A stretch of DNA of 64,000 nt from Acidimicrobiia bacterium (GTDB lineage Bacteria > Actinomycetota > Acidimicrobiia > Acidimicrobiales > JANYDT01): positions 45,639 to 109,638 of the forward strand of contig JAYSSR010000040.1 of NCBI GenBank assembly GCA_043720395.1. Reading direction: 5' to 3'. Shown piece by piece: positions 14,276-63,903 of this stretch. Made by a program: the position numbers and the translations under genes. The notes beneath the pieces were generated by a model. It ran no database searches, had not been told where the DNA came from, and saw only the letters and a list, made by a program, of their open reading frames with translations. Positions within the stretch are counted from its first letter, which is position 1. Each line of letters begins with the position of its first letter.

Positions 14276-14376
14276 ATTGGTTCGACAGGACTGTTTTGCC
14301 GTGGCGCGTCTCATGTCGAGCCTTCGAGCGGCTTGAGCGGCTGCGGATGCCTCGGCAGGGCGGTACGGTCGGGGTG

Positions 14377-14613
14377 ATGGCCACTCTTCTCTTGTTCGCC
14401 CAAGCACGCGAGGTGGCGGGTACCAAGCGCGCGACAGTCGAGGGCTCGACCGTCGGTGAGGTTCTCGCGGCAGCCGTCGCCACGTTCGGCACCGAGTTCG
14501 GCCGACTTCTCCCGCACTGCCGGGTGTGGCGCAACGGCGAACCAGCTGTCGACGCTGACCCGGTGACGGGCAACGACGAAGTAGCGGTGCTGCCTCCCGT
14601 TTCCGGCGGGTAG
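14377..14613 (+). CDS. MoaD/ThiS-family small sulfur-carrier-like protein
   Basis: 78 aa beginning MATLLLFAQAREVAGTKRATVEG and ending with a C-terminal diglycine (...VAVLPPVSGG-stop). Confidence 0.6.
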   Translation: MATLLLFAQAREVAGTKRATVEGSTVGEVLAAAVATFGTEFGRLLPHCRVWRNGEPAVDADPVTGNDEVAVLPPVSGG

Positions 14614-14625
14614 CCCGGTCAGGCC

Positions 14626-15159
14626 TCAGTCCGGGGCGTCTTCGTCGTCGCTTGCGCCCTCCCCGATCCCCTTCGCCATCAGGTACCCGCGGGCACGTTC
14701 GGTGCGGGGGTAGCGGTTGACCATCGTCCAGAACGCCCGTCCGTGGTCGGCATGGCGGAGGTGGCTCATCTCATGGACGAGCACGTAGTCGAGCACCCAG
14801 GTAGGCATGTCGGCGAGACGGTCCGAGATACGGATCGAACCGTCGGCGGGTGTGCACGAACCCCACCTCGACTGTTGGTTCGTCACCCAGCGGACCGTGT
14901 TCGGCTTCGGCAGGTCGAACCGTCTGGCGAGGTCGGAGGATCGGGCCACGAGATCGGTCTGGTCGGACGCCGCCTTGCGGGCGAAGCGTCCCTGCATCTC
15001 GGTGACCCATTTGGCCTCGTCGGCCTTGCCCATCCACGACGGGATGCGCAGTTCCATGACGCCCTTGACCATCCGTGCCGACACGCCCCGTTTGCGCTTC
15101 GTGCTGCGGATGACCCGCACGGCCGTATGCCCGGTGGGCTCGTCGGACGGCGCTGTCAC
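14626..15159 (-). CDS. YgjP/DUF45-type (M48-like) zinc metallopeptidase
   Basis: RWGSCTPADGSIRISDRL followed by the HExxH motif (LVHEMSHLRHADHG). Confidence 0.8.
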   Translation of the reverse strand: MTAPSDEPTGHTAVRVIRSTKRKRGVSARMVKGVMELRIPSWMGKADEAKWVTEMQGRFARKAASDQTDLVARSSDLARRFDLPKPNTVRWVTNQQSRWGSCTPADGSIRISDRLADMPTWVLDYVLVHEMSHLRHADHGRAFWTMVNRYPRTERARGYLMAKGIGEGASDDEDAPD

Positions 15160-15812
15160 AGCGCCGTCCCGAGTTGCAACGTCGCAATGTTCGACCCGTC
15201 AAGGAGGTCGAGCTCACCCGCATGCTCGGTGGATCTTCCGTCCCAACGGAACCAGGTAGCCCCGAGGTTCGGCACCGGACGCGGGTCGACGTGATGGTTC
15301 CGGGTCAGCGTCCGCATCACACCCCCGTGGGTGACGGCAACGATGACGGTGTCTTCGTTCGCTGCCTCGATGCAGAGACGCCCCAAGGCACGGCCGATCC
15401 GGACGTTCAGGTCCGCCTCACTCTCGCCCCCGGGGATCATCGGCAGATCACCACGACGCCACGCGTCGAGCTGTCCCGGCCACGCCGCCTCGATCTCGGG
15501 CGTCGTCTTCCCCGACCAGTTTCCGACGTTGCGCTCGCGCAGATCGGTGAGGACCTCGCTCACTGTCGTGCCGAATACAGCGGCGAACACCTCGGCGGTA
15601 TGACTCGCCCTCAGTAGGTCCGAGGTGACGATCCGCGGTGTTCCGTCGAGGTCGCTGGCCAAACGATGCGCCGCAGCCTGGGCCTGCGCGACGCCGAGAT
15701 CGTCAAGATCGACGTCGGCCCACCCCTGCCAGCGATGCGCCGCGTTCCACAATGTCTGCCCATGTCGCACCACGAGCACCCCCGCCCCATGTCGTTCGAT
15801 CTCAGGTTCCAC
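15156..15812 (-). CDS. Histidine phosphatase family protein (phosphoglycerate mutase-like)
   Basis: RHG motif (VVRHGQTLWN), SDLLRASHTAE and VTHGGVMR. Only the C-terminal 218 codons of the 431-aa ORF look coding. GTG at 15810-15812. Confidence 0.8.
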   Translation of the reverse strand: MEPEIERHGAGVLVVRHGQTLWNAAHRWQGWADVDLDDLGVAQAQAAAHRLASDLDGTPRIVTSDLLRASHTAEVFAAVFGTTVSEVLTDLRERNVGNWSGKTTPEIEAAWPGQLDAWRRGDLPMIPGGESEADLNVRIGRALGRLCIEAANEDTVIVAVTHGGVMRTLTRNHHVDPRPVPNLGATWFRWDGRSTEHAGELDLLDGSNIATLQLGTAL

Positions 15813-15881
15813 GCCCGACAGTGAACCAGAACCGCTCGCCCGCCGAAACCAGAGCCGGGACCCTCGTCTAACCTCACAGAC

Positions 15882-16421
15882 ATGGCCAACCGCAACCTCG
15901 ACCGCGTTCTTGCACCGGCGTTCCTCGACGGCATCGACACGTGGCCGATCGAGGCCATCCGCGACCGGCGGACCGACTGCCAGCGTCTTGAAGACGCTGC
16001 GTCCTACCTTCGCCGTCTGCTGCAGACCCGTATCGACATCCTCGGCCTCGAAACCCGGGCCCGCGCCAAGGGCGAGAACTCCGATGTCGTGTCGCTCGTC
16101 GAACGCCTCGCCGACGTGCTGGTCGATGAGCGTTACGAACACTCCCCCAACGGACGCCTTCTCACCAGCGACCCCGGCGACGATCAGGAGGAGTGGGCGC
16201 AACGGCGCATCATGGACGCGTCCGGCGGCATCGACATCGAGGGCTCCCCCGATCTCGCCGATGGCGAGCTTGCCGAGCTGGCCGAGCGCTTCATCGAGCT
16301 TGAGCGGGTCGTATCCCGCGAGCGTCGAGCTCTCCACGATGTGTACGACCGCCTCCAGGCCGAACTGATCGAGCGGTACCGCTCCGGCCGTGCCACGGTC
16401 GACGGCCTGCTGCGCAACTAA
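15882..16421 (+). CDS. RsiG-like coiled-coil protein (candidate c-di-GMP-binding anti-sigma factor)
   Basis: 179 aa with two copies of the E-x3-S-x2-R-x3-(Q/H)-x3-D pattern: EDAASYLRRLLQTRID (res 37-52) and ERVVSRERRALHDVYD (res 141-156). Confidence 0.6.
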   Translation: MANRNLDRVLAPAFLDGIDTWPIEAIRDRRTDCQRLEDAASYLRRLLQTRIDILGLETRARAKGENSDVVSLVERLADVLVDERYEHSPNGRLLTSDPGDDQEEWAQRRIMDASGGIDIEGSPDLADGELAELAERFIELERVVSRERRALHDVYDRLQAELIERYRSGRATVDGLLRN

Positions 16422-16456
16422 TCCTGATTCAGCAACAGACCCAAGATCCACGCCTA

Positions 16457-16861
16457 GTGAAGCGACGCCACGACCCTGACGCTCCCGACGACGGCTTCGC
16501 GGATCGCGCCCAGCAGCTCGGCGATTTCATCCGCGACCAGCGTCGGGTGGCCCGTCTGTCGCTGCGCAAGCTGAGCGACATGGCGCAGATCTCGAACCCG
16601 TACCTCAGCCAGATTGAACGCGGCCTCCGCAAGCCGTCCGCCGAGATTCTCCAACAGCTCGCCAAGGCGCTGCGCATCTCCGCCGAGACGCTCTACGTCC
16701 AGGCCGGCATCCTCGATGAACGCTCCGACGCCATCGACCTTGCTACAGCCATCCGGTCCGACGCCACCCTCAACGACTCGCAGAAGCGTGCACTCGTGCA
16801 GGTGCTCCGTTCTTTCCAGGCCGAGAACCGTGTTCCGGTCGTCGCGGAACAAAGCGCCTAG
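16457..16861 (+). CDS. XRE-family helix-turn-helix transcriptional regulator
   Basis: LRKLSDMAQISNPYLSQIERGLRKPSAEILQQLAKAL. Confidence 0.8.
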   Translation: MKRRHDPDAPDDGFADRAQQLGDFIRDQRRVARLSLRKLSDMAQISNPYLSQIERGLRKPSAEILQQLAKALRISAETLYVQAGILDERSDAIDLATAIRSDATLNDSQKRALVQVLRSFQAENRVPVVAEQSA

Positions 16862-16884
16862 GCGCGCGGTTGGATGCCTTGCTC

Positions 16885-18105
16885 ATGACGATCTCCGTTG
16901 CGGTCCTGTCCATGCATACCTCCCCGCTTACCCAGCCGGGCACGGGCGATGGCGGGGGCATGAACGTCTACGTGCGTGAGCTGTCCACTGCGCTCGCTCG
17001 TGCGGGCGTGGCGTGTGAGGTGTTCACCCGTGCAGACGGCACGGACACGCGGCCCAGCGTCAGCGTCGAACCCGGATTCCGTGTGCACCATGTGCCTGCC
17101 GGTCCGATTGGGGAAATCCCGAAGGAACATCTCCCGGATCTCACCGACGCGTTTGCCGACGCGGTCGGTCATCGCCTCGACCTGCTCGGTCTTCGGCCCG
17201 ACGTGATCCATGCCAACTACTGGCTCTCCGCCGTCGCCGGTCACCGCCTCAAGCACCAGCTGGACCTCCCGCTCGTCACCACGTTCCACACGCTCGCGAT
17301 GGTGAAGATCGAGGCGGGCGATATCGAACCGGAATCTCGGGTTCGAGCGGAAACGTCGGTGATCGGCTGCAGCGACATCGTCCTCGCCAATACGCGCATC
17401 GAATCGGAGCAATTGCAACGCCTTTACGGTGCCGATCCCCACAGGATCGAAGAGGTCCCACTCGGCGTCGATCACGCGTTCTTCTCGCCCGGCAACCGCA
17501 GCGGGGCCAAGGCGGCGCTCGGTCTTGCGAACCTGCCGACCGTGCTCTACGTCGGCCGCATCCAGCCCCTGAAGGGGACCGAGCTTGCCATCCGCGCTTT
17601 CGCCGCGATGAAGCGTCAAGACGGACAACTCGTCGTTGTCGGCGGACCGAGCGGGTCCGACGGCGCAGCAGAGGTGGCCCGCATCCACACGCTTGCCCGC
17701 GACCTCGGCGTCGCCGATCGCATTCGGTGGGTCGTTCCCCAGCCCCACCACCTGCTCTCGACCTACTACCGCGCCGCCGAGGTGTGCATCGTGCCGAGCC
17801 GGTCGGAATCGTTCGGTCTCGTCGCCCTCGAAGCAGGCTCGTGCGGCACGCCGGTCATCGCCGCCAACGTCGGGGGCTTGCAGACCATCGTCGACCCGGG
17901 CTCGACCGGATTCCTCATCGACGGCCGTGATCCTGCTGTTTGGGCAGCGTCGCTCGACTCGATGTTGAACGACCCCCAGATGGCAGCGGCTATGGGCTTC
18001 AATGCTGCCGGACGCTCCCTCCGCTACGCATGGAGCTACAGCGCCGCTCGCCTGCGTCGCCTCTACGGAGACCTCCGAGTCGGTGCCCTCGTCAGCTGCG
18101 CCTGA
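16885..18105 (+). CDS. mshA: D-inositol-3-phosphate glycosyltransferase MshA (mycothiol biosynthesis)
   Basis: LSMHTSPLTQPGTGDGGGMNVYVRELS, and a GT4 C-terminal domain with PSRSESFGLVALEAGSCGTPVIA. The ORF is open from TTG 16870. Confidence 0.9.
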   Translation: MTISVAVLSMHTSPLTQPGTGDGGGMNVYVRELSTALARAGVACEVFTRADGTDTRPSVSVEPGFRVHHVPAGPIGEIPKEHLPDLTDAFADAVGHRLDLLGLRPDVIHANYWLSAVAGHRLKHQLDLPLVTTFHTLAMVKIEAGDIEPESRVRAETSVIGCSDIVLANTRIESEQLQRLYGADPHRIEEVPLGVDHAFFSPGNRSGAKAALGLANLPTVLYVGRIQPLKGTELAIRAFAAMKRQDGQLVVVGGPSGSDGAAEVARIHTLARDLGVADRIRWVVPQPHHLLSTYYRAAEVCIVPSRSESFGLVALEAGSCGTPVIAANVGGLQTIVDPGSTGFLIDGRDPAVWAASLDSMLNDPQMAAAMGFNAAGRSLRYAWSYSAARLRRLYGDLRVGALVSCA

Positions 18106-18108
18106 GCG

Positions 18109-18594
18109 ATGACGCTGCGCTACGAGGACCGCGGTCGCTTCGTGACCCTCGTGGAGGCCTGGGTCACGCAGCTCGTCGCCGAGAATCCGATCGTGAGCAG
18201 CGTCGAACGTGACGCCGAGGTGGACCGCTGGTATGTGCGCGTCCGGGGCGATGAGAAGGCAGTGACCACCGTATGGTTCACCGTGGGCGAACAGGTCGTA
18301 CACGCCGAGTCGTACTTCATGCCCTGGCCCGAGGACAACCGAGCGGAGACGTTCGAGTACCTGCTCCGGTCCAGCCAGCGCTTTTACGGTCTGAGGTTCT
18401 GTATCGGCCCTGAGGACGCGGTGTACTTGCGCGGCGAACTGCCCCTTGCCGCTTTGTTGGCGGGCGATCCGAACGATGAACTGGATCGGCTGCTCGGCGC
18501 AACGTACGCGTACACCGAGGATTGCTTTCGCACCGCGATGACCCTGACCTTCGGCGACCGGTTCCGACCGAAAGGCAGCACAGCGCCAGTTTGA
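18109..18594 (+). CDS. YbjN-domain protein (the conserved partner found downstream of mshA in actinobacteria)
   Basis: 161 aa starting 4 nt after the mshA stop. The sequence (DRWYVRVRGDEKAVTTVWFTVGEQVVHAESYFMPWPEDN) has the shape of the YbjN-like family. Confidence 0.65.
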   Translation: MTLRYEDRGRFVTLVEAWVTQLVAENPIVSSVERDAEVDRWYVRVRGDEKAVTTVWFTVGEQVVHAESYFMPWPEDNRAETFEYLLRSSQRFYGLRFCIGPEDAVYLRGELPLAALLAGDPNDELDRLLGATYAYTEDCFRTAMTLTFGDRFRPKGSTAPV

Positions 18595-37115: not shown

Positions 37116-37988
37116 ATGAGCACTGGCACCACACTCCTCATCGCCATCATCGTTGTCGTCGTCCTGGCAGTGCTGTTCTTGGCCGTCACGGCTCGGAGCA
37201 GCGACCGTAACGCCGCGACCGGACTCCTTGCGCGGGAGACAGAACGGCGCGACCGTCAGCGCCGTCATCGCGCCGCGGTCGGCGACAACGAGGCACCTGC
37301 GGCATCAGGTCGCACGCTGGAGCGTTCCGTGGCGTTGGCGCAACGTGGTGGGAGTGCGGTCGCTGTCGTCGAAGCGGCGAGCGTGCCCGACATTCTCCGT
37401 CCACCAATGGATGCCGACCAACTAGGCGTTGTCAGGCGTCAGTTCATGAACCGCAGCATTATCGTCCTGTTCTTGGTGAGCCTCGGCGGCTTCGGTGCGT
37501 CTCTCTTGGCGTTTCTCTGGCCAAGCCAGACGGGTGGTTTCGGCGCGACCGTCAAAGTCGGCAAGCTCGATGACATCCTCGCCGACATCAAGACGAAGGA
37601 GGAGCCGTTCTACGTCGCAGAGGCCCGCACCTACCTCGTCCCGTATCCGAAGGAAGCGCTCGCGAAGGGCAAAGCCAGCTACGGCGAGACGGTGTACAAG
37701 GGCATGGAGCAGGGCGTGGTTGCCCTCTACCAGAAGTGTGTGCACCTGGGTTGCAAGGTGCCGTGGTGCAAGAGTTCGCAATGGTTCGAGTGCCCGTGTC
37801 ACGGTTCGCAGTACAACCGCGTCGGTGAGAAGAAGGCCGGCCCGGCACCGCGCGGACTTGATCGATTTGCCGTCAGCGTGGATGGCGGAATCGTGAGCGT
37901 CAACTCGGGTGCCCGTACCAACGGTCCCGCAATTGGCGTCAACACCACCGGGCAAGAGGCCGAAGGCCCCCACTGCGTCTCCGAATGA
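37116..37988 (+). CDS. Rieske [2Fe-2S] iron-sulfur subunit
   Basis: CVHLGC...CPCHGSQY Rieske boxes and two TM helices. The start is placed at MSTGTTLLIAIIVVVV inside the 398-aa ORF. Confidence 0.85.
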   Translation: MSTGTTLLIAIIVVVVLAVLFLAVTARSSDRNAATGLLARETERRDRQRRHRAAVGDNEAPAASGRTLERSVALAQRGGSAVAVVEAASVPDILRPPMDADQLGVVRRQFMNRSIIVLFLVSLGGFGASLLAFLWPSQTGGFGATVKVGKLDDILADIKTKEEPFYVAEARTYLVPYPKEALAKGKASYGETVYKGMEQGVVALYQKCVHLGCKVPWCKSSQWFECPCHGSQYNRVGEKKAGPAPRGLDRFAVSVDGGIVSVNSGARTNGPAIGVNTTGQEAEGPHCVSE

Positions 37989-39310
37989 TGGCTGCTGAGG
38001 AGAACATGAACGTCATTGACACTGTGAACGTGCTCGCGGCGACGCCGCAGAAGGCCGTCGGACTGACCATCCTGGTGGTCGCTCTGCTGGCCTGGGTGCT
38101 GTACCTCATTACCGAGAATCGGCGTACGCCGAAGTCGAACATCGAGAGCTTTCTCGGAGCGCCCAACCGGAAAGTGCCGCCGGAAGACGACGAGTTCGAA
38201 GGGCCCCGCCTCGATCGATTCCTCGGCTGGGCCCTCATCGGCATCGCAATCATGGCCGTGTCACTGCCCGCCTATTTCTTGGCTGAACCGGGGCGTGAAG
38301 TGGGCGCGATTCGGGGCTTCGACAAGCGAAGCGTCCATCGCGGCGAGGAGTCGTTCGGCGCCGAGCACAACGGATTCAACTGTGCGAAGTGTCACGGCGC
38401 AGACGGCGGCGGCGGCGTCACGTCCTGGTCCGTTGCGCAGTACAACGCCGATGGAACTCCCAAGATCGACCCTTCAACGAAGAAGCAGGAACTGAAGCAG
38501 GTCACTTGGTTAGCACCGAGAGTCAACGACGTTGCCCTTCGCTATCGGAGGGAACAGATCCGCAACGTCCTGATCTATGGGCGCGGCACCAACAAGCCAA
38601 TGCCCGCGTGGGGGATCAAGGGAGGCGGACCGGCCAACGAACAGCAGATCGATGACCTCGTGAATTACCTCCGCTTTGCTGCATTGGAACAGGACGAAGA
38701 AGCGGTAAAGGTGTACAACGCTGAATGGAACAGCAACGGTCATAGCGCGGACAAGGCGTTCGACAAGGCGTTCGAGGCAGCCGCCGAGAGAGCCCAGAAG
38801 GAATCAACCGACGCTCTCGCGAAGATCAAGACGGACTCCGCAAAAGCGGTGCAGGCAGCGTCCAACCCAACGGGACCGCTCCTGACCGCCACGAAGGGTC
38901 TCGCCGATGCCAAGACTGCGAACGATCCAGGTTTGATCGCAGCCGCCGAAGCCAAACTTGCTGAGGCAACCCGAAACCTCGACAACGCGAAAAAGGTGCT
39001 CGCCGCGTCGGATGGTGAGCTCCTGTTCAACTCGAACTGCGCTCGCTGTCACACGAATGGCTACAGCTACGGAGAGCCCAACGGATCCGGCGGCGGCTTC
39101 TACGGTCCGCGGCTCTCCGAGTCCAGCCTGACCCAGCAGTTCCCCGAGAAAGTCACTCAGATCGAATACATCAAGAACGGTGTGGAGGACTCGAAAGCCT
39201 ACGGTACCGGTGGCGTCAACCATTGGTCCGGCGGCGGAATGCCCTACTTCGGGACCATCCTCACGGATGAACAGATCGAAAAGATCGTCGACTACGAGCG
39301 GAGGCTGTGA
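37985..39310 (+). CDS. Dihaem c-type cytochrome, N-terminally anchored
   Basis: CAKCH and CARCH motifs, and an N-terminal TM helix LTILVVALLAWVLYLI. Its start overlaps the Rieske stop. Confidence 0.8.
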   Translation: MMAAEENMNVIDTVNVLAATPQKAVGLTILVVALLAWVLYLITENRRTPKSNIESFLGAPNRKVPPEDDEFEGPRLDRFLGWALIGIAIMAVSLPAYFLAEPGREVGAIRGFDKRSVHRGEESFGAEHNGFNCAKCHGADGGGGVTSWSVAQYNADGTPKIDPSTKKQELKQVTWLAPRVNDVALRYRREQIRNVLIYGRGTNKPMPAWGIKGGGPANEQQIDDLVNYLRFAALEQDEEAVKVYNAEWNSNGHSADKAFDKAFEAAAERAQKESTDALAKIKTDSAKAVQAASNPTGPLLTATKGLADAKTANDPGLIAAAEAKLAEATRNLDNAKKVLAASDGELLFNSNCARCHTNGYSYGEPNGSGGGFYGPRLSESSLTQQFPEKVTQIEYIKNGVEDSKAYGTGGVNHWSGGGMPYFGTILTDEQIEKIVDYERRL

Positions 39311-40188: not shown

Positions 40189-40668
40189 ATGGCCGATTAC
40201 CTCCCGATCGTTCTGCTACTGATCGTTTCGACGCTCTTCGTTTTCGGTTCTTTCGTCGCAAGCGCCGTGCTTGGGCCGACGCGTCAGGAAACGGCAGCCA
40301 AGATCGGGCCGTACGAATGCGGGATCGTTCCAGACAAAGAGACGGCGGAGCGGTTCCCCGTCCGCTTCTATCTCGTCGCGATGATCTTCATCATCTTCGA
40401 TATCGAGATCATTTTCCTGTACCCGTGGGCTGTCCTGTTCGGGAGGCTCGGCACGTTCGGTCTGGTTGAGATGGTCATCTTCTCGATTGCCGTTCTGGTG
40501 TCGTTCGTGTATCTCATTTCCAACGGCGCGCTCGACTGGGGCCCGATTGCGCGACTTCGTGAACTCGAAGGGTCCGTAGCACTCCGGGTCCCCGATGAAC
40601 TTCGGACGTCGGCATCGTCGATTCGGCGAATCCCGAAGCCTCCACGTGAACCACAGGAAGCGGCCTGA
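40189..40668 (+). CDS. nuoA: NADH-quinone oxidoreductase subunit A (copy 1, with a C-terminal extension)
   Basis: PYECGIVP...[27 protein letters not shown]. Confidence 0.9.
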
Positions 40669-40669
40669 C

Positions 40670-41218
40670 ATGGGCCTCGAGGATCTCAACCACAACTTCG
40701 TCACGGGCACAGTCGAATCGCTTGTGAAGTGGAGTCGCCAAAACAGTGTGTGGCCGGCGTCGTTCGGACTTGCCTGCTGCGCCATCGAGATGATGGCGAC
40801 CGGTGCTTCGCGGTTCGATCTCGCCCGTTTCGGCATGGAAGTCTTCCGCGCCTCTCCGCGCCAAGCCGATCTCATGATCGTTGCCGGACGCGTCTCCCAG
40901 AAGATGGCACCGGTACTTCGTCAGGTCTACGACCAGATGATGGAACCGAAATGGGTGATCTCGATGGGTGTTTGCGCGTCTTCCGGCGGGATGTTCAACA
41001 ACTACGCCATCGTTCAGGGAGTGGACCAGATTGTTCCGGTCGACGTGTACGCGCCAGGTTGCCCACCTGGACCGGAGACGCTGATCTACTCAATCCTCAC
41101 GCTGCACGAGAAGATCAAGACCGGCGAGATCACGAAGAGGCGTCAAGACAGCGGTGCCGGTGCCGGGATCATGCTGGACGCACCTCCGCCCACCATCGCG
41201 ATTGGTCGGCCCAAGTGA
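40670..41218 (+). CDS. nuoB: NADH-quinone oxidoreductase subunit B (copy 1, actinobacterial type)
   Basis: [60 protein letters not shown]. Confidence 0.9.
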
Positions 41219-52502: not shown

Positions 52503-54145
52503 CCGTGCAGTCGTTGTTGTTCGCCGCGGAAACTCATTCCGCGCACGTGTCGTTCCCATTGCTAAGCGCGCTGATCATTGTGCCGCTCGTCGGCGCGCTG
52601 CTCACCTCGCTCATCCCGAAGACGCGGAGCGAACTCGTTCCGATCGTCGCCATCGGATCTTCGGCGATCACGCTCGCCCTCTCGGTCTGGCTGATGACCA
52701 ACTTCGACAAGTCCGACGCTGGCTACCAGTTCGCGTCGAAGCACGAATGGATCCGCCAGTTCGGCATGTCGTGGAACCTCGGTGTGGACGGCATCTCGCT
52801 TTGGCTCGTTGTGCTTACGGGTTTGCTGTTCCCTATCGCCATGATCGGACCTGACGAGCGAAAGAACGTCAAGTCATACATGGCCTGGCTATTGCTCCTC
52901 GAAGCCGGGGTCATGGGCGTATTTCTCAGCCTCGACTTGCTGCTGTTCTTTGTGTTCTTCGAGGTTGTGCTCGTGCCGATGTACCTCTTGATCGGCGGCT
53001 GGGGCCACGGCAACAAGACCTACGCAGCCACGAAGTTCTTCATCTACACGATGTTCGGTTCCGCGTTGCTGCTCGTCGCCACGATCACGTTGGCCTTCCT
53101 CGCGAAGGGCAAACTCGGTGTTCTGACCTTCGACGTACGTGAACTCGCCAACGCTGGGCTCGGTATCAACACCTCACGCTGGTTGTTCCTTGCGTTCGCC
53201 CTCGCGTTCGCGATCAAGGTACCGCTGTTCCCGCTTCATACCTGGCTGCCCGACGCGCACACCGAGGCGCCGACCGCTGGCTCCGTCATCCTTGCGGGCG
53301 TCATGTTGAAGATGGGCACCTACGGGCTCATCAGGTTCGGGCTGTTCCTGTTCCCGGAGGCGAGCGATTGGTTCGGTCCTGTGATGCTCACACTCGGCGT
53401 GATCGGGATCATCTACGGTGCCCTCACAGCCGTTGTGCAGAAGGACCTCAAACGTCTCGTCGCGTATTCGTCGGTAGCGCACCTTGGCTTCATCGTGATC
53501 GGTACGTACTCGCTGACCAATCAGGGCATCAGCGGCAGCGTCCTCCAGATGATCAACCACGGCCTTTCGACCGGAGCGTTGTTCCTACTCGTCGGCTGGA
53601 TCTACGAGCGGTGCCACACCCGGGAGATCTCTCAGCTGAAGGGTCTCCAGAAGCTCGCTCCGGTGCTCGCCGGCGCGTTCACGATCGTCATGCTCTCCTC
53701 GATCGGTGTGCCGGGGCTCAACGGTTTCGTGGGTGAGTTCATGATCCTGGTCGGCACGTTCCTCACGGCACGCTGGTGGGCGGTCGTTGCAGCTACGGGG
53801 GTCATCCTCGCCGCGTTGTACCTACTGTGGGCGTATCAACGGACGTTTCATGGCGAGCCGGATGAGGAGAACCGGGCGCATATGCACGATCTCAACCTCC
53901 GCGAACGCCTCGCGATTGCACCGCTCCTCGTGTTGATCGTGTTCATTGGCGTGTATCCGAAACCATTCCTCGATCGTATTGATCCGTCGGTGAAGGCTCT
54001 GATCGCTCACATCGAGGAGAAAACCGGTAAACGCGAGCCTGGTGTTGCGAAGAATCAGGGTGCCGTTGCGGCGTCAAATGAGTCACCAAGTGAGCCAGCA
54101 GACGAGTCATCCGATGATTCATCTCATGGGGAGGAGGCGAAGTGA
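52499..54145 (+). CDS. nuoM: NADH-quinone oxidoreductase subunit M
   Basis: KVPLFPLHTWLPDAHTEAPTAGSVILAGVMLKMGTYG. The GTG start overlaps the nuoL stop. Acidic Ser-rich C-terminal tail. Confidence 0.9.
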   Translation: MTVQSLLFAAETHSAHVSFPLLSALIIVPLVGALLTSLIPKTRSELVPIVAIGSSAITLALSVWLMTNFDKSDAGYQFASKHEWIRQFGMSWNLGVDGISLWLVVLTGLLFPIAMIGPDERKNVKSYMAWLLLLEAGVMGVFLSLDLLLFFVFFEVVLVPMYLLIGGWGHGNKTYAATKFFIYTMFGSALLLVATITLAFLAKGKLGVLTFDVRELANAGLGINTSRWLFLAFALAFAIKVPLFPLHTWLPDAHTEAPTAGSVILAGVMLKMGTYGLIRFGLFLFPEASDWFGPVMLTLGVIGIIYGALTAVVQKDLKRLVAYSSVAHLGFIVIGTYSLTNQGISGSVLQMINHGLSTGALFLLVGWIYERCHTREISQLKGLQKLAPVLAGAFTIVMLSSIGVPGLNGFVGEFMILVGTFLTARWWAVVAATGVILAALYLLWAYQRTFHGEPDEENRAHMHDLNLRERLAIAPLLVLIVFIGVYPKPFLDRIDPSVKALIAHIEEKTGKREPGVAKNQGAVAASNESPSEPADESSDDSSHGEEAK

Positions 54146-55710
54146 GTCTGCTGGCCCGAGTTCTTGGGCAGACCACCGATACGGTCGCCGACGTCGCCGC
54201 CGATGCGGCCGACGGCATCGGCACGATCGTCATGCCGGCCATCCAATGGCGTGCGCTCGCCCCGATCAACGTGATGATCGGCGGCGCGCTTGTGTTGCTC
54301 GTCCTGGCGTCACTCGCACGTCACACGAAGTGGATCGGCCATGTGTATGTGTGGGCCACGTGTGCGATCGCCGGGGCGGCTGGCATCTTCGCTCTCGACT
54401 ACGGATCAACGGCCCGCGACGTCACGAAGCCTGCAAGCGCGGTCTCCGATGCCCTGCGAATCGATGGTTTCGCAACCTTTGTCACCGTTCTCATCTGCGT
54501 GTCCGTCATCCTTGCCACGCTGATCGCGGATGGGTTTCTGAAGCGGGAGGGTCTTCATGGCCCGGAAGTCTTCGTACTGACGCTGCTTTCCGCGTCGGGT
54601 GGCATCGTGATGGCGTCGGCCAACGACCTCATCGTGATGTTCCTGGGGCTCGAAATTCTTTCAATCGCCCTGTATGTACTGGCAGGATCGCACCTCCGGC
54701 GTCAGGAATCACAGGAAGCGGCGCTGAAATACTTCGTGCTGGGTGGCTTCTCCTCGGCGGTCTTCCTGTACGGAAGCGCCCTCATCTACGGAGCGACCGG
54801 GTCCACGAACTTCACCGCTATTGCCACCTACCTCGGCGAGAACGTCTTCTTCCAAAACGGATTGCTGGTTACGGGCATCGTGCTGCTGCTCGTCGGTCTG
54901 GGCTTCAAGATCGCCGCGGTGCCGTTCCACATGTGGACACCCGACGTCTACCAAGGATCGCCGTCGCCGGTCACCGGCTTCATGGCGGCGGCGGCCAAGG
55001 CAGCTGGCTTCGCCGGACTGTTGCGAGTGCTGTTCACCGCGCTCGATTCCCGTCGGCTTGATTGGCAGCCGGTCGTCTGGGTACTCGCGATCATCACGAT
55101 GATCGTCGGCGCGATCCTGGCGGCTACCCAGACCGACGTGAAACGGATCATGGCGTACAGCTCGATCAGCCACGCGGGCTTCATCCTCATCGGGCTGCAG
55201 GCGGCCAACGCTGCGGGCCGCTCCGGCGCGCTGTTCTACCTGTTCGCGTACACCTTCATCGTGCTGGGCAGCTTCGCCGTGATCTCGGTCGTTGGCGGCC
55301 GCGGTGACCGGGCACATTCTCTGGACGACTACAAGGGCCTCGGCAAGCGTGCACCCGTGCTCGCGGTGTTGTTCACGCTGTTCCTGCTCGCACAGGCCGG
55401 CATCCCGACCACGAGCGGTTTCATTGCAAAGTTCGGAGTGATCCGTGCTGCGGCTGATGCGCATTCGTACGCGATTGCGATCATCGCGATGTTCGTCTCG
55501 GTCATCGGCGCGTTCGCGTACCTGCGGGTGGTCGTGGCGATGTTCATGTCGGACTCGGATACCGACTCGGACACGGCCTCTGATGCCGGTGCACTTACGG
55601 TCCCGATCGGCACAAAGGTCGCGCTTGCCGTCGCCGTTGCCGCGACGCTGTTCTTCGGCATCGCTCCGCAGCTCCTCGTGAACTTCGCCGACAAGGCCCT
55701 CCTCCGGTAG
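54142..55710 (+). CDS. nuoN: NADH-quinone oxidoreductase subunit N
   Basis: GFKIAAVPFHMWTPDVYQGSPSPVTGFMAAAAK. Confidence 0.9.
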   Translation: MSLLARVLGQTTDTVADVAADAADGIGTIVMPAIQWRALAPINVMIGGALVLLVLASLARHTKWIGHVYVWATCAIAGAAGIFALDYGSTARDVTKPASAVSDALRIDGFATFVTVLICVSVILATLIADGFLKREGLHGPEVFVLTLLSASGGIVMASANDLIVMFLGLEILSIALYVLAGSHLRRQESQEAALKYFVLGGFSSAVFLYGSALIYGATGSTNFTAIATYLGENVFFQNGLLVTGIVLLLVGLGFKIAAVPFHMWTPDVYQGSPSPVTGFMAAAAKAAGFAGLLRVLFTALDSRRLDWQPVVWVLAIITMIVGAILAATQTDVKRIMAYSSISHAGFILIGLQAANAAGRSGALFYLFAYTFIVLGSFAVISVVGGRGDRAHSLDDYKGLGKRAPVLAVLFTLFLLAQAGIPTTSGFIAKFGVIRAAADAHSYAIAIIAMFVSVIGAFAYLRVVVAMFMSDSDTDSDTASDAGALTVPIGTKVALAVAVAATLFFGIAPQLLVNFADKALLR

Positions 55711-55712
55711 GT

Positions 55713-56087
55713 TTGATCTCCGTGTCGCAGTTCCTCCGCTCCTATCTGACCATCGCCTTCCTGGCCGGGGCCGCGTTTCTTCTGGTCGGCGGCACGCTCG
55801 CACTCTCGCGACTGGTACGCCCGAAGCGTCCGAGCGCTGAGAAATTGGTGGCGTACGAGTCCGGCGTCGATCCGGTCGGCACCGGGTGGTCGCAGTCTCA
55901 GATTCGCTATTACATCTTTGCCCTCCTGTTCGTGATGTTCGACGTGGAAGCGGTCTTCCTCTTCCCGTGGGCGCTGCGACTCGAGTACTTCGGTGTGTTC
56001 GGTCTCGTGGAGATGGGTGCCTTCGTTGGCATCCTCCTGCTCGGTCTGCTCTACGCGTGGCGCAAGGGCGTGCTGCGCTGGGTCTGA
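55713..56087 (+). CDS. nuoA: NADH-quinone oxidoreductase subunit A, second divergent copy (nuoA2)
   Basis: [10 protein letters not shown]...[25 protein letters not shown]; 124 aa, starting 2 nt after the nuoN stop. Confidence 0.85.
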
Positions 56088-56133
56088 CCCCGACGCATCA
56101 CACGAAATATCGCCGGAATCTGAGGAACCAGTC

Positions 56134-56649
56134 ATGGGCATTGTCGAAAAGGGTTTGCTGGGAAAGAAGGGCGCAAAACCGCTCACCTGGCTGTTGAACT
56201 ACAGCCGCAAGTACTCCCTCTGGTGTTACCAGTGGGGTCTCGCGTGCTGCGCGATCGAAATGGGGGCTGCGTTCGCATCGCCTCGCTACGACGTGATGCG
56301 CCTCGGGGTCATCCCGTTCCCGGCATCGCCGCGCCAAGCCGACCTCATCGTTGTGTCCGGCACCGTGACCGACAAGATGGCACCGGCGATCAAGCGCCTC
56401 TACGAACAGATGCCCGAACCGAAGTACGTGATCTCCATGGGGAGCTGTGCGAACTGTGGCGGTCCCTACTGGGATTCGTATTCGGTCATGAAGGGTGTCG
56501 ACCAGATCGTGCCCGTCGATGTGTACGTGCCGGGCTGTCCTCCGCGTCCGGAAGCCCTTCTCGAAGGGATCGTGCTCCTCCAAGAGCGCATCCAGAATGA
56601 GGACATGGCCACGAAGTGGCGTGGCGATCCCATTGTTGTCGGGGAGTAA
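56134..56649 (+). CDS. nuoB: NADH-quinone oxidoreductase subunit B, second divergent copy (nuoB2)
   Basis: [68 protein letters not shown]. All four N2-cluster Cys positions are retained. Confidence 0.85.
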
Positions 56650-56777: not shown

Positions 56778-59700
56778 GTGGAGAAGTCGAAAGCGCCGAG
56801 CGATGCCGACGACGGTATCCATGTAGCGGTCGACGTCGGCAGCTTGCGGCGAACGGCGGTAGTTCGTCCGGGTCGCGATGTGACCTGGGCCGACGTACTT
56901 TCCGCGCTTCGACCGGGTGCGGTGGACGACCTGTCGGTGGACGGCGTCCCCGTCCGTTGCGGCTGGCCGGTGGTCGCGCTGCAGCGTGGCTCGTTGCTCA
57001 CCCTGGGCGTGGCGAAGACACGACTGCTACCCAAGTGCCCGGATTCGGTGCCGCTCGTGGTGCGCGTGCTCACGGGTCCGCTCGCTGGATCGACCATCGG
57101 CCTCCCCGCGGGCACGACCGTATTCGGACGGGAACAGTTGGGCGATCCGACCGTGTCCGTTCGCCACGCCGCATTCCACGTCATCTTCGCACCGGACGGT
57201 GAACCCGTGGTGCACGTCGCCGATCTCGCTTCTACGAATGGCACGACCGTCGAAGGTCTCCCAATCGGACAGGGATGGCATCCGATCGAAGACAACGCCT
57301 CGATGGTGGTCGCATTCGGCCGATGTCTCCTACGTGCGGAAGCCGCGACCGAGGTAACCGCCGCACCACGTCTCCTCGGTCGCGACGGCCGGATACCGGT
57401 GCAGCGATCGCCACGTCTCAACATTGTTGAACGTGCCCAACCGATCGGCGTACCCGCGGCGCAAAAAGCACCCGGGTTGTCGCGCCTGCGCCTCTCGACC
57501 ATGTTCCTCCCGCTGATTCTGGCCGCGGTGATGGTGAAGGTCACTCATCAGCTGACGTTCGCCCTGTTCGCGTTGCTGTCGCCGCTCACCATGTTGGGCA
57601 ACCACCTTGAGGATCGTGGCAAGCGTCGGAGCGTTGGCCGACGCGGTGCGGCGCAGAGCCGTGCAGAGCTGGCGGCCTTCGAGGCCGAAACACGAGACAG
57701 TCGAGCCGTCGAACGGCGTCGCCGCTTCGATCAGTTCCCTGACCTCGCGCGAATCGCCGAGACGTGCGCTATCGCGGACGCTGCATTGTGGGCACGACAA
57801 CCTGACCACTCCGACTCACGAGCCGTCGTGCTCGGCTATGCATCGCAGCGTTGGCAGCCGCCGCTTCGACCGGAACCGACGGGGTCCGAGCCGGATCACA
57901 TCATCGAGGCCATCGAACGGACGAAAGACCTGGGCGAAGTGCCGCTCGTAACCGAGATCGTCGCGGGTCGTTGCATCGGGATCCACGGCGAACGTGAAGC
58001 GGTTCGAGCGATGGCCAGATCGCTCCTGATCCAGGCGGCGGCGCACCGGAGCCCCGCCGATCTCGCCATCTCGGTTGCACCAACCGCGGCGCGAGAGAGG
58101 TGGGCGTGGACGCATTGGCTTCCACACCGCGGAGTTGGCGACGGCGAGCCTGCGGGGGACGACAGAAGCGAGACGACCGATGTACGGGATCAGCTTTTCC
58201 TGCTTGACCTTCTTGACGAACCCAGGCCGGTTCCTCACAGGTTCGATGCCGCCAGATCTCGCTCGGTGATTGCCCTCGCGCTCACGCCCGAACGGCTTCC
58301 GGCGGGTTGTGGGGTAGTCATCCACACCAACGGACAGCTGGCGGAGGTCATCGATCTCACGCATGGGGTGCGGTTCTCCGAGACGGTCGCGTTGGCCGCA
58401 TCGGCTGAGTTCGCCGATGCGGTAGCGAGGTCGCTCGCCCCCTATGCAGATGTCGATCTCGTGGACGACGCCGCGATGATTCCGATTGCGGTGCCGCTCG
58501 TCGGAATGCTCGGTGTTGAAGGCGTTACTCGCGACAACTCGTCGTCCGCTGCAATGCCCGTCCAAGGGCGATGGGAAGCTGCGCGCGGCCAGACCGGACT
58601 CGCTGTCCCCGTCGGTCGTGATGAGAACGGGCTCGTCGTTGTCGATCTGGTCGCCGACGGACCGCACGCCCTCGTGGCCGGAACAACGGGATCCGGGAAG
58701 AGTGAGCTTCTACGCAGCTGGCTGGTCGCTCTGGCCGCAACCTATTCACCGGATGAACTCAACTTCGTGCTGATCGATTACAAGGGAGGAAGTGCGTTCG
58801 CCGCATGCGCAAGCCTTCCCCACACGGCCGGGCTGGTGACGGATCTCGATGGTCACCTCGCGGCGCGGGCGTTGCGGTGTCTCGATGCGGAGATCGTGCG
58901 CCGTGAGCGGATTCTCCGCGATGCCGAAGTGATGGATCTCCCGGCCCTGGTCGTTGCCGGTGGGCACCTCCCCCGGTTGGTCGTCGTGATCGACGAATTC
59001 GCGACGCTTGCCGCCGAGGTCCCGGGATTCGTTGATGCTCTCGTCGGCGTCGCGCAGCGGGGCCGGAGCCTCGGGTTGCACCTCGTGCTGGCGACGCAGC
59101 GTCCATCGGGGGCGGTCAGCGAGAACATTCGCGCGAACACCAACATGCGGATCTCGTTGCGTGTCCAGTCAAGCGCCGATTCGGTGGACGTGATCGGCGA
59201 CCCGGCTGCAGCGCGTCTTCCTCGTCGAGTGCCCGGCCGCGCCCTGATCCGACTCGGGCCGGGAGAGCTGACGACGTTTCAAGCCGCGTACTGCGGCGGT
59301 TCGGCAACCGCAGCGGTGGCGCTTCCGGCGGCGTCCTGGACGGACGAAGATCATCTGTGCACCGATAATCAGCGTGCTGATGATATGCGTGCTGATGATA
59401 TGCGTGCTGATGATATGCGCGCTGAGTTCACCAATGGCGCGACTGCCGCGATGCCGAGAGACGACGACCTCACCAGTCTGGTAAGCGCGATCTGCGCCGC
59501 CGCCATCGACGCGGGGACAACCCCGCCGCATCGACCATGGCCGGACCCGTTGCCTCCCGCGATCGCGCTCCCGCCGACACGGTCCGAGCCTGCGGAGACT
59601 TTGGGCCTTTCGGTCGAGATCGGTGTTGCGGATCTTCCCGACCAGCAGCGATGGGAATCGCTCATCTGGCAACTCGATCGGGGACCGCTTCTCGTGACGG

Positions 59701-61067
59701 GACCTGTCGGCAGTGGCGTCACCTCGACCCTGACGGCGGCGGCGTGTTCAGCAGCGCGAGACCACTCGCCCGATCACCTCCAGCTCCACGTGATCGACTT
59801 CGGTGTCGGAGCGTTGCTGCCCTTACGCGGCCTTCCCCATGCCGGCGACATTCTCGGCCTGGCTGATCGGGAACGACTTCGACGCTGCGCTCGCTGGCTC
59901 GACGGCGAGCTTTCGGTTCGTCGTGCGGCACTGGTCACGGCTGAGCTGTCACGTTGGTCCGACCTTGTCGGGCCGGACACACCGCCGCGAGTCCTGATCG
60001 TGATCGATCAGTATCAAGCACTGCGCTCGGAACTCGACTCACCCGACGGGCATGCGACCTTGGAGACGTTGCACCGCGTCATCGCAGACGGAACCGCGGT
60101 GGGCTTGCACGTCGCCGTGGGCGTTGATCGTCTCCAGGCCGTACCCGCAGCGGTCCTCGGCGCGTTCGTGCAGCGCCTCGTGCTTGGTGCGCGGGAACGC
60201 TTCGAGGTGGCCATGGCCGGCGCGAAGGTCGATGAACTCCCGCCGCCAATTCCGGGACGTGGGATCGACATCCCCGAGGCTCGGGAGGTTCAGATATTCC
60301 AGGTCGAAGGGTTGGTCGAAGTGGTCGCTCACCTGCATGAGACGTGGGGGGCACCGTCCGTCGCTGCCCATCGATCACCCGTGCTTCCCACTGCGGTGGC
60401 CCGTGCCGACCTGGGCATGAGCGGTGTGGCTTTGCCCGTGGGTCTCGGAGATCGCGACGTGGGCACTGTCGGCTTCGATCTCGTGAGTGGCGAAGGTCTG
60501 ATGGTGGTCGGCCCGGGACGTTCCGGCCGCAGTTCGACGCTCGCGCTCCTGGCCAGACAGGTTCGGTCGGCGGACCCAGAACGGGCTCTGATGTTCGTCA
60601 CACCACGGACTTCGACGCCGATGGAGCGGGCGCGAGAAATGCTCGGCGATGCTGTGGCAGTGGTGGCGTCGGATGCAGCCGCCGTTGCAGATGCAGCGCG
60701 TGCGGTTCTCGATCTCGGTCACCGCGTCGCGCTCTTCATCGACGACGCCGAGCACCTGGACGACCCGACGCGGGCTTTGGAGCGACTCCTCCTCGCACGT
60801 CCTCCGGGCCTGTGGGTCTGCGCTGCCGGTCGAGTCGATGCGCTGCGCAGCGCCTACGGACATTGGACCATGCCGATCAGACGGACTCGAACGGGTATTG
60901 CGTTACGCCCGAATCTCGACACGGACGGAGACGTGTTTGCCACCCCGCTCCCACGTCGCGGCGGGCCGTTCCCACCCGGCCGCGGGTGCCTCATCCGCGA
61001 TGGCGACGTCGAGGTTGTGCAGCTCGCACTGTGGAACGAGGTCGCACGAGAGTTAGGGTCGCTCTGA
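56778..61067 (+). CDS. FHA-domain / triple FtsK-SpoIIIE ATPase membrane protein (EssC/EccC-like architecture)
   Basis: 1429 aa. FHA-like GTTVFGRE...VSVRHAAFHV...LASTNGTTVEG, two TM helices around res 245-285, and a canonical P-loop GTTGSGKSE (58680-58703) with VVIDEF and LVLATQRPSG. Two further P-loop-like sites are degenerate: GPVGSGVTS (59700-59726) and GPGRSGRSS (60510-60536). Confidence 0.8.
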   Translation: MEKSKAPSDADDGIHVAVDVGSLRRTAVVRPGRDVTWADVLSALRPGAVDDLSVDGVPVRCGWPVVALQRGSLLTLGVAKTRLLPKCPDSVPLVVRVLTGPLAGSTIGLPAGTTVFGREQLGDPTVSVRHAAFHVIFAPDGEPVVHVADLASTNGTTVEGLPIGQGWHPIEDNASMVVAFGRCLLRAEAATEVTAAPRLLGRDGRIPVQRSPRLNIVERAQPIGVPAAQKAPGLSRLRLSTMFLPLILAAVMVKVTHQLTFALFALLSPLTMLGNHLEDRGKRRSVGRRGAAQSRAELAAFEAETRDSRAVERRRRFDQFPDLARIAETCAIADAALWARQPDHSDSRAVVLGYASQRWQPPLRPEPTGSEPDHIIEAIERTKDLGEVPLVTEIVAGRCIGIHGEREAVRAMARSLLIQAAAHRSPADLAISVAPTAARERWAWTHWLPHRGVGDGEPAGDDRSETTDVRDQLFLLDLLDEPRPVPHRFDAARSRSVIALALTPERLPAGCGVVIHTNGQLAEVIDLTHGVRFSETVALAASAEFADAVARSLAPYADVDLVDDAAMIPIAVPLVGMLGVEGVTRDNSSSAAMPVQGRWEAARGQTGLAVPVGRDENGLVVVDLVADGPHALVAGTTGSGKSELLRSWLVALAATYSPDELNFVLIDYKGGSAFAACASLPHTAGLVTDLDGHLAARALRCLDAEIVRRERILRDAEVMDLPALVVAGGHLPRLVVVIDEFATLAAEVPGFVDALVGVAQRGRSLGLHLVLATQRPSGAVSENIRANTNMRISLRVQSSADSVDVIGDPAAARLPRRVPGRALIRLGPGELTTFQAAYCGGSATAAVALPAASWTDEDHLCTDNQRADDMRADDMRADDMRAEFTNGATAAMPRDDDLTSLVSAICAAAIDAGTTPPHRPWPDPLPPAIALPPTRSEPAETLGLSVEIGVADLPDQQRWESLIWQLDRGPLLVTGPVGSGVTSTLTAAACSAARDHSPDHLQLHVIDFGVGALLPLRGLPHAGDILGLADRERLRRCARWLDGELSVRRAALVTAELSRWSDLVGPDTPPRVLIVIDQYQALRSELDSPDGHATLETLHRVIADGTAVGLHVAVGVDRLQAVPAAVLGAFVQRLVLGARERFEVAMAGAKVDELPPPIPGRGIDIPEAREVQIFQVEGLVEVVAHLHETWGAPSVAAHRSPVLPTAVARADLGMSGVALPVGLGDRDVGTVGFDLVSGEGLMVVGPGRSGRSSTLALLARQVRSADPERALMFVTPRTSTPMERAREMLGDAVAVVASDAAAVADAARAVLDLGHRVALFIDDAEHLDDPTRALERLLLARPPGLWVCAAGRVDALRSAYGHWTMPIRRTRTGIALRPNLDTDGDVFATPLPRRGGPFPPGRGCLIRDGDVEVVQLALWNEVARELGSL
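59373..59426 (+). repeat. In-frame 15-bp tandem repeat (about 3.5 copies) inside the FtsK-like gene
   Basis: CGTGCTGATGATATG x3 (59373-59417), then the degenerate CGCGCTGAG. It encodes RADDM-RADDM-RADDM-RAE. Confidence 0.9.
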
Positions 61068-63072: not shown

Positions 63073-63732
63073 TCAGGTCGAGCGGTTGGCGAGACGCTTG
63101 CGGTCAACGATGCGGTAGGTACGATCGCGCTGCTCAAGCCAGCCGAGGCGGATGAACGCAGCGATCGCCTTGTTGACGCGCTCACGAGAGGCACCGATCA
63201 TCGAGGCCAATTCTTCCTGGGTGATCGGAAGGCTGAACTCGTCGGAGGTGCCCGCGATCTCCAGGAGACGTTTCGCGGTGCGTCCGGTCACGTCGAGGAA
63301 GACCGAGTCGGCGATCGCTTCGTTGGCGGAACGGAGGCGATCCATGAGCAGCGTGATGACGCTCCACAGGGCCTTCGCGTGCGTCTCGAAATGCGCGCGA
63401 ACGGGTTCGAACGGAACCCGGACGACCTCGCTCGACTCCAGCGCGCGGGCTCCAGCGGAGCGTCCCTTGCCGTCAAACATCGCCATCTCGCCGAACAGAT
63501 CGCCCGGGTCCATGAGGTCGAGCACGGACTCGCGGCCGTCGACCGAGCGGTTCCCGATTGCAATGCGCCCGGACACCGTGATGTACAGCGCGTCGGCCGG
63601 ATCCGTCTCGGCGAACACCATGTCGCCACGCTGGTACGACTGACGCGTCGCTCTAGAGGCGACCTCCACGAGCGCTTCGTCGGTAAAGCCGGAGAAGAAT
63701 GGGATGCTTCGAAGGAACTCCGCGGTGACCAC
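63073..63732 (-). CDS. crp: Crp/Fnr-family cyclic-nucleotide-binding transcriptional regulator
   Basis: cNMP domain DLFGEMAMFDGKGRSAGARALE and HTH TQEELASMIGASRERVNKAIAAF. The GTG start at 63732 is inferred. Confidence 0.85.
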   Translation of the reverse strand: MVTAEFLRSIPFFSGFTDEALVEVASRATRQSYQRGDMVFAETDPADALYITVSGRIAIGNRSVDGRESVLDLMDPGDLFGEMAMFDGKGRSAGARALESSEVVRVPFEPVRAHFETHAKALWSVITLLMDRLRSANEAIADSVFLDVTGRTAKRLLEIAGTSDEFSLPITQEELASMIGASRERVNKAIAAFIRLGWLEQRDRTYRIVDRKRLANRST

Positions 63733-63903
63733 GGCGGTGAGCCTATGCGCCTGTGACGTCCGTCGCTCGTCAGGGTCTCGGGCTGCCCTGGAACGGTTGC
63801 AAACAAAAGAAACCCGACGAAAACCGAGCCCGGCCAGGCGTTTGCTACAATCGTAGGTCGCAATTTCCGATTCAGTTTGGGTCGGTCGCTTCTGAGGAGC
63901 CTC

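Follow-up and report, generated by a model that had tools for sequence, protein, structure and literature searches.

A twin-motif RsiG homologue and its conserved gene neighbourhood in an uncultivated Acidimicrobiia bacterium

The open reading frame at positions 15882–16421 on the plus strand of the window (the whole stretch of 64,000 nucleotides, or 64 kb, analysed here) encodes a real RsiG homologue of the twin-motif form. A preliminary description of this DNA had named its product an RsiG-like protein with two c-di-GMP-binding-type helix motifs, an identity that is borne out by its sequence, by profile search, by its predicted fold and by the conservation of both motifs among its relatives. 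[quoted passage not shown] By analogy with the RsiG of Streptomyces venezuelae, the protein probably acts at high c-di-GMP as a monomeric coiled-coil that clamps a c-di-GMP dimer and sequesters a WhiG2 sigma factor encoded elsewhere, a fall in c-di-GMP then freeing the sigma. The features on which the argument draws are these:

15869..15874, plus strand: -10-like hexamer TAACCT, 7 nt before the ATG and without a Shine-Dalgarno sequence (sequence read directly)
15882..16421, plus strand: rsiG-like coding sequence with ATG start, 179 aa, twin-motif RsiG family, Pfam PF22802 (open reading frame and translation)
15948..16067, plus strand: predicted long helix, residues 23–62, first arm of an antiparallel coiled-coil (AlphaFold2 (AF2), pLDDT >90 over most of its length)
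15990..16037, plus strand: c-di-GMP-binding-type motif 1, EDAASYLRRLLQTRID, with E37/S41/R44/Q48/D52 (residues 37–52, in predicted helix alpha1)
16260..16385, plus strand: predicted long helix, residues 127–168, second arm of the antiparallel coiled-coil (AF2, pLDDT 91–97)
16302..16349, plus strand: c-di-GMP-binding-type motif 2, ERVVSRERRALHDVYD, with E141/S145/R148/H152/D156 (residues 141–156, in the predicted last long helix, the equivalent of alpha5)
16457..16861, plus strand: gene for an XRE-family HTH regulator, 134 aa (Pfam HTH_3/HTH_31)
16870..18105, plus strand: GT4 glycosyltransferase gene, MshA-like (Pfam, synteny); conserved context outside the switch
18109–18594: YbjN-family gene, following the MshA-like gene (Pfam, synteny); conserved context

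Both motifs lie where the preliminary description had placed them. The first does match E-x3-S-x2-R-x3-Q-x3-D exactly (15990–16037, residues 37–52), the second does carry His in place of Gln (16302–16349, residues 141–156), and their separation, given earlier as about 100 residues within a 179-aa protein, is 104 residues. The protein belongs to the Pfam family PF22802 ("RsiG-like"), scoring 65.4 bits against a gathering score of 27 (E = 3.8e-18). A search of NCBIfam with the 179-aa protein returned no match, and since that collection is without a model for the RsiG-like protein, the genome annotation may give it as a mere "hypothetical protein". Among PDB sequences, the sole significant phmmer match is to S. 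venezuelae RsiG/AmfC (6PFJ and 6PFV; E = 8e-11, or 8.1e-11 for 6pfj_T), in an alignment of residues 23–177 of the query with residues 27–175 of 6pfj_T that brings both motifs into register. Motif 2 is thus paired with EQQISRRRHHLQRTAD of 6pfj_T, so that H152 falls on the structural Gln173 of S. venezuelae RsiG. Homology to this protein (AmfC, vnz19430) extends over the full length at ~31–32% identity, with the same predicted fold and with an E(X)3S(X)2R(X)3[Q/H](X)3D motif on either arm of the coiled-coil, both in register. The window protein differs from its 24-kDa Streptomyces counterpart in being shorter, at 179 aa and without the variable N-terminal extension, and in having His rather than Gln in the second motif.

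Homologues of the window protein form 75 clusters, most of them 175–198 aa in length with a few shorter or longer, and almost all are unnamed metagenome proteins; PF22802 is found in every one of the 74 for which a precomputed Pfam entry exists. Across 43 homologues, E37, S41, R44 and D52 of motif 1 are invariant, and position 48 is Gln in 36, His in five and Phe in two. S145, R148 and D156 of motif 2 are likewise invariant, with E141 kept in 41 of the 43 and with position 152 occupied by His (29 sequences), Gln (10) or Phe (4). In published RsiG proteins, helices alpha1 and alpha5 show 33–40% similarity beyond the motif, a trace of intragenic duplication. When the corresponding helices of the window protein are set in register, 10 of 40 residues are identical, but beyond the motif just six out of 35 agree, a level without significance (shuffle p = 0.18), and a BLASTP comparison of its alpha1 with its alpha5 gave no alignment.

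An AF2 model built with 43 homologues (mean pLDDT 84.3, pTM 0.76) consists of two long helices, each with a motif at its center, together with shorter accessory helices. The prediction is thus of an RsiG-type antiparallel coiled-coil with accessory helices, made by a monomer. When this model is compared with the PDB by Foldseek, the best four matches are RsiG chains, all with a probability of 1.00 and with TM scores of 0.63–0.74; their E-values run from 3.6e-4 to 1.4e-3, three being ≤0.001, and the fifth match has E >1.

In S. venezuelae, a single RsiG chain takes up a c-di-GMP dimer, partly intercalated, by way of its two motifs and only thereafter binds and sequesters WhiG. Base reading falls to Arg and Asp, and stacking on the outer guanines to Gln75 and Gln173 (PMC7005675). 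By comparison with solved structures of RsiG-(c-di-GMP)2-WhiG, and from the conservation of motif and fold, we infer that the window protein binds nucleotide and sigma factor likewise. Its two motifs would together grip a partly intercalated c-di-GMP dimer, with Arg and Asp reading the guanines, Ser and Glu touching phosphate and ribose, and Q48 and H152 stacking on the outer bases of the dimer. So loaded, RsiG would sequester a WhiG2-type sigma factor of the sigma-28 family, the gene for which would lie elsewhere in the genome, in Acidimicrobiales at a xerC-whiG-rpsB locus. Because loaded RsiG would hold the sigma, the WhiG regulon would be off as long as c-di-GMP is high, and a fall in c-di-GMP would release it.

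The preliminary description had also pointed to the lack of a sigma factor partner in the window. The absence as such is confirmed by tblastn, by Pfam and by the translations. Searched against the 64-kb window, S. venezuelae WhiG (a query sequence recovered from the 6PFJ alignment) and E. coli FliA gave a best E-value of 1.5, with no sigma-28 or group 1–3 sigma among the results, and no Sigma70, GGDEF, EAL, HD-GYP, PilZ, pilus or flagellar domain occurs in the window ORFs, of which 31 were scanned with Pfam and the remaining ~20 identified by eye from their translations. The implication that this is an oddity does not stand, however. In S. venezuelae, rsiG (vnz19430) and whiG (vnz26215) are unlinked (PMC7005675), and a window without a sigma gene is therefore normal. 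Nor did tblastn with WhiG and FliA detect a sigma gene within up to 10 kb on each side of rsiG in 16 related loci; over the window and these 16 loci together, nothing better than E = 0.6 was found.

The genes that the window does contain encode an Lhr helicase, SurE, Nei, YgjP, a histidine phosphatase, the XRE regulator, the MshA-like GT4 glycosyltransferase, YbjN, ProC, a SAM hydrolase, acyl-CoA ligases, Rex, HemACDBL, the product of a dapD-like gene, a TetR regulator, cytochrome c and bc components, the products of a nuo operon, an FHA-FtsK ATPase, an SDR, DisA and a Crp-type regulator. A search for sigma-28/WhiG-type promoters across the 64 kb, using the pattern T[AC]AA-N15-17-GCCGA, the full consensus TAAA-N-GCCGATAA and the WhiG1 pattern CTCA-N16-17-GCCGA, produced two matches where 2.4 are expected, which is the level of chance, and no match to the full consensus. 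One match at 37939–37963, upstream of a cytochrome c gene, was rejected as a candidate promoter, being indistinguishable from chance.

That a suitable sigma factor exists in this lineage is suggested by several lines of evidence. All 134 rsiG-bearing genomes surveyed in the original structural work possess whiG and diguanylate cyclases (PMC7005675; restated for whiG in PMC12871210). According to a 2026 preprint on WhiG1 and WhiG2, the partner of RsiG belongs to the WhiG2 clade and not to the flagellar WhiG1 clade, WhiG2 being marked by K57, G61 and R62 together with a set of sigma-4 residues. When homologues of S. venezuelae WhiG were sought, the best 120 clusters were close Streptomycetaceae, nearly all of them Streptomyces. 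A search of 1.84 billion representative proteins (50%-identity representatives) returned 150 representatives, 59 of which carry K57/G61/R62. One of these (P0214; 258 aa, 56% identical to S. venezuelae WhiG) bears the signature KGR plus TLYEL, and its cluster includes a [quoted passage not shown]. Among the 120 clusters listed in a search with this representative, at 57–100% identity over the best local alignment and with many named Acidimicrobiales, the c-di-GMP contacts K57/G61/R62 are kept in 114, and 107 also keep the RsiG contacts T235/L236/Y239/E240/L242. Since the only known role of these residues is to touch c-di-GMP and RsiG, their conservation argues from sequence that the c-di-GMP/RsiG switch may well operate in Acidimicrobiales.

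In most of the contigs examined, where the contig extends far enough, the Acidimicrobiales whiG lies between xerC and rpsB-tsf-pyrH-frr-cdsA, amid housekeeping genes rather than flagellar ones. The whiG of Streptomyces coelicolor (SCO5621) presumably adjoins rpsB (SCO5624) in the same way. The eight WhiG contigs and four RsiG contigs examined have no accession in common that would place WhiG2 and RsiG in one MAG assembly; we infer that WhiG2 co-occurs with RsiG in the RsiG-bearing clade and in the source genome.

The RsiG family is spread across many Acidimicrobiia MAGs, as its 75 protein clusters attest. A protein identical to that of the window was met only once elsewhere, on a 5.8-kb Logan contig (run SRR23617227). 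Among species-representative genomes, a search for related loci built on the 16 closest sequences found a full-length relative (47–62% identity) at 16 loci, all 16 of them from Acidimicrobiia/Acidimicrobiales MAGs, which agrees with an occurrence of this family of small proteins in Actinobacteria alone; a single match labelled "Planctomycetia" is a 29-aa fragment at the end of a contig. The isolate names of many RsiG-bearing relatives begin with GFS_ or GL, which we take to indicate glacier-fed-stream studies. Twin-motif RsiG had already been recorded in this class: a survey of 673 actinobacterial genomes (PNAS 2021; PMC8325347) reports it in Acidimicrobiales, in three of four species, and lists Acidithrix ferrooxidans AXFE_25810, Ferrithrix thermotolerans SAMN02745225_00312 and Ilumatobacter coccineus YM304_37910 in its Table S1. 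In our search of the literature for RsiG and Acidimicrobiia together, this 2021 paper alone connects the two. The window protein is for that reason an ordinary further member of a described family, of little importance in itself; the RsiGs of I. coccineus, A. ferrooxidans and F. thermotolerans come from the same class and have the same twin-motif form, a likeness matched by published category.

The host of the window protein is an uncultivated Acidimicrobiia bacterium that is not known to sporulate, as opposed to S. venezuelae, and its output regulon must therefore differ from that of S. venezuelae. A WhiG2 sigma governs sporulation in Streptomyces and type IV pili in Rubrobacter. The RsiG of Rubrobacter radiotolerans (complex in PDB 7LQ4) shares the motif chemistry and the type of partner, a WhiG2 sigma, and controls type IV pili. 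As its host is unicellular and non-sporulating, it offers a useful model for a non-developmental output. It represents the single-motif, homodimeric, ancestral form, however, whereas the window protein carries both of its motifs in a single chain. Membership of that single-motif class, found in Rubrobacteria and Thermoleophilia and made up of small proteins that bear the alpha1-type motif alone and lack a counterpart of alpha5, was rejected on the ground that both motifs and both long helices are contained in one 179-aa chain. An identity as the anti-sigma-28 factor FlgM was likewise rejected. FlgM does the same job, in that it sequesters a sigma of the FliA/sigma-28 family, but it has no kinship in sequence or fold to the window protein: Pfam gives no FlgM match at E≤1, and FlgM is absent from the PDB sequence and fold matches. 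It binds no nucleotide, and the flagellar apparatus exports it from the cell.

The gene order rsiG, XRE, mshA-like GT4, ybjN is kept in all 15 of the related loci that extend past rsiG. Across these loci the XRE protein is the better conserved of the first two, at 70–81% identity against 47–62% for RsiG, and in many relatives the rsiG stop and the XRE start overlap by 4 nt. The window has a 35-nt gap at this point, and its rsiG and XRE genes are probably co-transcribed. A distant RsiG (~35% identity) is followed by a receiver domain and an HD_5/HD protein, with an XRE gene 2 kb on. On the other side, thiS lies directly 5' of rsiG in relatives; in the window, it lies beyond the YgjP and phosphatase genes. 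Leaderless transcripts of actinobacteria have this layout: a -10 hexamer just before the ATG and no Shine-Dalgarno sequence. The hexamer TAACCT fits the arrangement, and of 20 rsiG loci set side by side, 19 have a TANNNT hexamer 6–10 nt 5' of the ATG. A scan for E. coli-type promoters around rsiG found nothing, TAACCT included. TAACCT is accordingly best described as a candidate promoter, with a putative -10 element of the housekeeping type, for a leaderless rsiG mRNA.

Against the reading of this protein as a c-di-GMP-dependent anti-sigma factor, one might object at the outset that long spurious open reading frames arise in high-GC genomes, and that a 431-aa ORF on the minus strand (15156–16451) overlaps the region; the motifs could then have arisen by chance in an ORF that is charged and helical, or the true gene could be the antisense one. 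We consider this vanishingly improbable. The codon-position GC of ORF 15882–16421 (+), at 0.77, 0.43 and 0.83 for the three positions in a window of 64.5% GC, is typical of genes, and the low GC2 and high GC3 thus mark a real coding frame. A six-frame search of the 64 kb for E-x3-S-x2-R-x3-[QH]-x3-D finds two matches, both in the rsiG ORF, where shuffled sequence yields 0.03 on average; the Pfam and PDB matches are significant, and the ORF is kept in the 75 homologues. The minus-strand ORF was in turn rejected as a rival gene, being an upstream extension of the histidine-phosphatase gene: its 3' part alone matches a family (Pfam His_Phos_1, E = 2.7e-42), and that match starts near 15775, about residue 19 of a translation begun at 15830. 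With the antisense extension recognized as an artefact, the histidine-phosphatase gene and the rsiG-like gene diverge from an intergenic region of ~50–80 bp. A subtler objection concerns H152, since published descriptions give His in the first helix only (PMC7005675, PMC8325347) and 29 of the 43 sequences in this clade have it in the second helix. The window protein might on this account be an RsiG homologue whose nucleotide binding is altered or weakened through the His of motif 2, and the preliminary description had indeed suggested that the change from Gln to His may alter nucleotide stoichiometry. Yet the motif is published with [Q/H] at this position, the authors of the structure noting that Gln is often replaced by His and that both suit guanine stacking (PMC7005675, PMC8325347). 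Phe, also a stacking residue, is tolerated in both motifs, the base-reading Arg and Asp are invariant, and a His fixed over the whole clade bespeaks function under selection and not decay. Given so tolerant a stacking site, and a His fixed throughout the clade, altered or weakened binding seems very unlikely, and the suggestion about stoichiometry finds no support in a position that is variously Gln, His or Phe among the 43 homologues.

The more serious competitor accepts the RsiG fold and its role as a c-di-GMP receptor and supposes that in Acidimicrobiia WhiG is not the main partner, or not the only one, the adjacent XRE regulator being one example of another. The conserved rsiG-XRE-mshA order in 15 of 15 loci, the stronger conservation of XRE relative to RsiG, the 4-nt overlap in many relatives and the recurrence of an XRE gene 2 kb 3' of the distant RsiG all lend it some appeal. 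Adjacency of genes alone, however, is no sign of physical interaction; the whole RsiG architecture is retained, including the accessory helices that in Streptomyces touch sigma-2 and sigma-4; and the WhiG2 of the lineage keeps its contacts to RsiG and c-di-GMP, which is hard to explain if RsiG is not its partner. We therefore judge a different main partner unlikely and prefer sequestration of a WhiG2 sigma. Similarly doubtful is a more elaborate proposal, in which rsiG and XRE would form a leaderless, translationally coupled operon 5' of mshA, the XRE protein would be part of the c-di-GMP switch, and the His of motif 2 would represent a lineage-specific tuning of affinity. If the XRE protein were part of the switch, it could be a second client of RsiG, regulate its own operon or tie the switch to mycothiol and redox physiology, and the RsiG module would gain an output beyond the sequestration of WhiG. 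The coupling of rsiG to XRE is the only thread here that might open something new.

As to what a WhiG2 sigma would control in these non-sporulating Acidimicrobiia, the window gives no clue, since it lacks both the sigma factor and any recognisable promoter of the WhiG type. New, though minor, are the conserved rsiG-XRE-mshA arrangement and the probable leaderless promoter. This gene order, the leaderless-type promoter and the xerC-whiG-rpsB position could aid the annotation and study of the module in Acidimicrobiia.

The gene order rsiG, XRE-family HTH gene, mshA-like GT4 gene, ybjN is invariable, both in the window (15882-18594) and in the related rsiG loci from other contigs (L002-L017, L026-L036 and L058-L059). 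Across the rsiG loci compared, the XRE-family HTH product encoded downstream of rsiG is 134-158 aa in length and is better conserved than RsiG itself. Because the rsiG stop codon and the XRE start codon overlap by 4 nt in many relatives, the sequences suggest that these two genes are translationally coupled.

Immediately 5' of rsiG, by 6-10 nt from the start codon, a TANNNT hexamer (15869-15874 in the window) is conserved in 19 of 20 rsiG loci, and beside it no Shine-Dalgarno sequence is present before the start codon. As read from sequence, this layout is that of a leaderless mRNA transcribed from a housekeeping-type -10 element, as opposed to a WhiG-type promoter. A fit to a relaxed WhiG2 promoter pattern is seen elsewhere in the window, at 37939-37963 (+), where TCAACACCACCGGGCAAGAGGCCGA lies ~20 nt 5' of a dihaem cytochrome c gene (37985-39310). 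Since such matches occur across the whole window at a count expected by chance, this one is probably fortuitous.

The WhiG2-type sigma genes of the Acidimicrobiales (L019-L025, L037-L064) are positioned in the order xerC-whiG-rpsB-tsf-pyrH-frr-cdsA, often with a 4-nt overlap between whiG and xerC, and with a two-component system and a Germane-domain protein encoded upstream. Their neighbours are those of a housekeeping locus, not of a flagellar cluster.

In all of the relatives L002-L017, thiS sits directly upstream of rsiG, whereas in the window the YgjP and histidine-phosphatase genes lie between thiS (14350-14613) and rsiG, a difference that indicates a small local rearrangement near rsiG. 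The histidine-phosphatase gene (15159-15824, -) is itself missing from the public gene calls of L001, the identical Logan contig, which at the equivalent positions (2124-2789) give instead two small plus-strand ORFs without family; this looks like a gene-caller strand error in high-GC DNA.

Outside the close relatives, a distant homologue of RsiG is found:

L057, 3859-7036 (span of the gene group): distant RsiG homologue, ~35% identity

Downstream of this homologue come a stand-alone receiver domain and an HD_5/HD protein that is possibly an HD-GYP-type phosphodiesterase, followed by asparaginase II and an XRE gene, and the group may constitute a local c-di-GMP signalling cassette. A 29-aa RsiG fragment, 79% identical to the window protein, is also present at the end of a contig binned as 'Planctomycetia' (L018, 3-89), which is probably a mis-binned Acidimicrobiia contig and not an occurrence of RsiG beyond the Actinobacteria.

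Some 45 kb from rsiG, two genes lie tail-to-tail:

61993-63066, +: DisA (c-di-AMP synthase; DAC and DisA-linker domains)
63073-63945, -: Crp/Fnr-type cNMP-binding regulator

DisA belongs to a different cyclic-dinucleotide system, with no evident link to rsiG. By eye, from translations only, a second nuoA-like and nuoB-like pair (55713-56087 and 55993-56649) is seen immediately past nuoN (54142-55710), the same nuo operon already opening with nuoA/nuoB (40189-41218). The gene at 56778-61067 (+) encodes a 1429-aa protein whose architecture resembles that of EccC from type VII secretion, an FHA domain at the N-terminus being combined with ATPase domains of the FtsK/SpoIIIE type. GC1 is higher than GC3 in this gene, and a gene caller based simply on GC3 for that reason took it for antisense.
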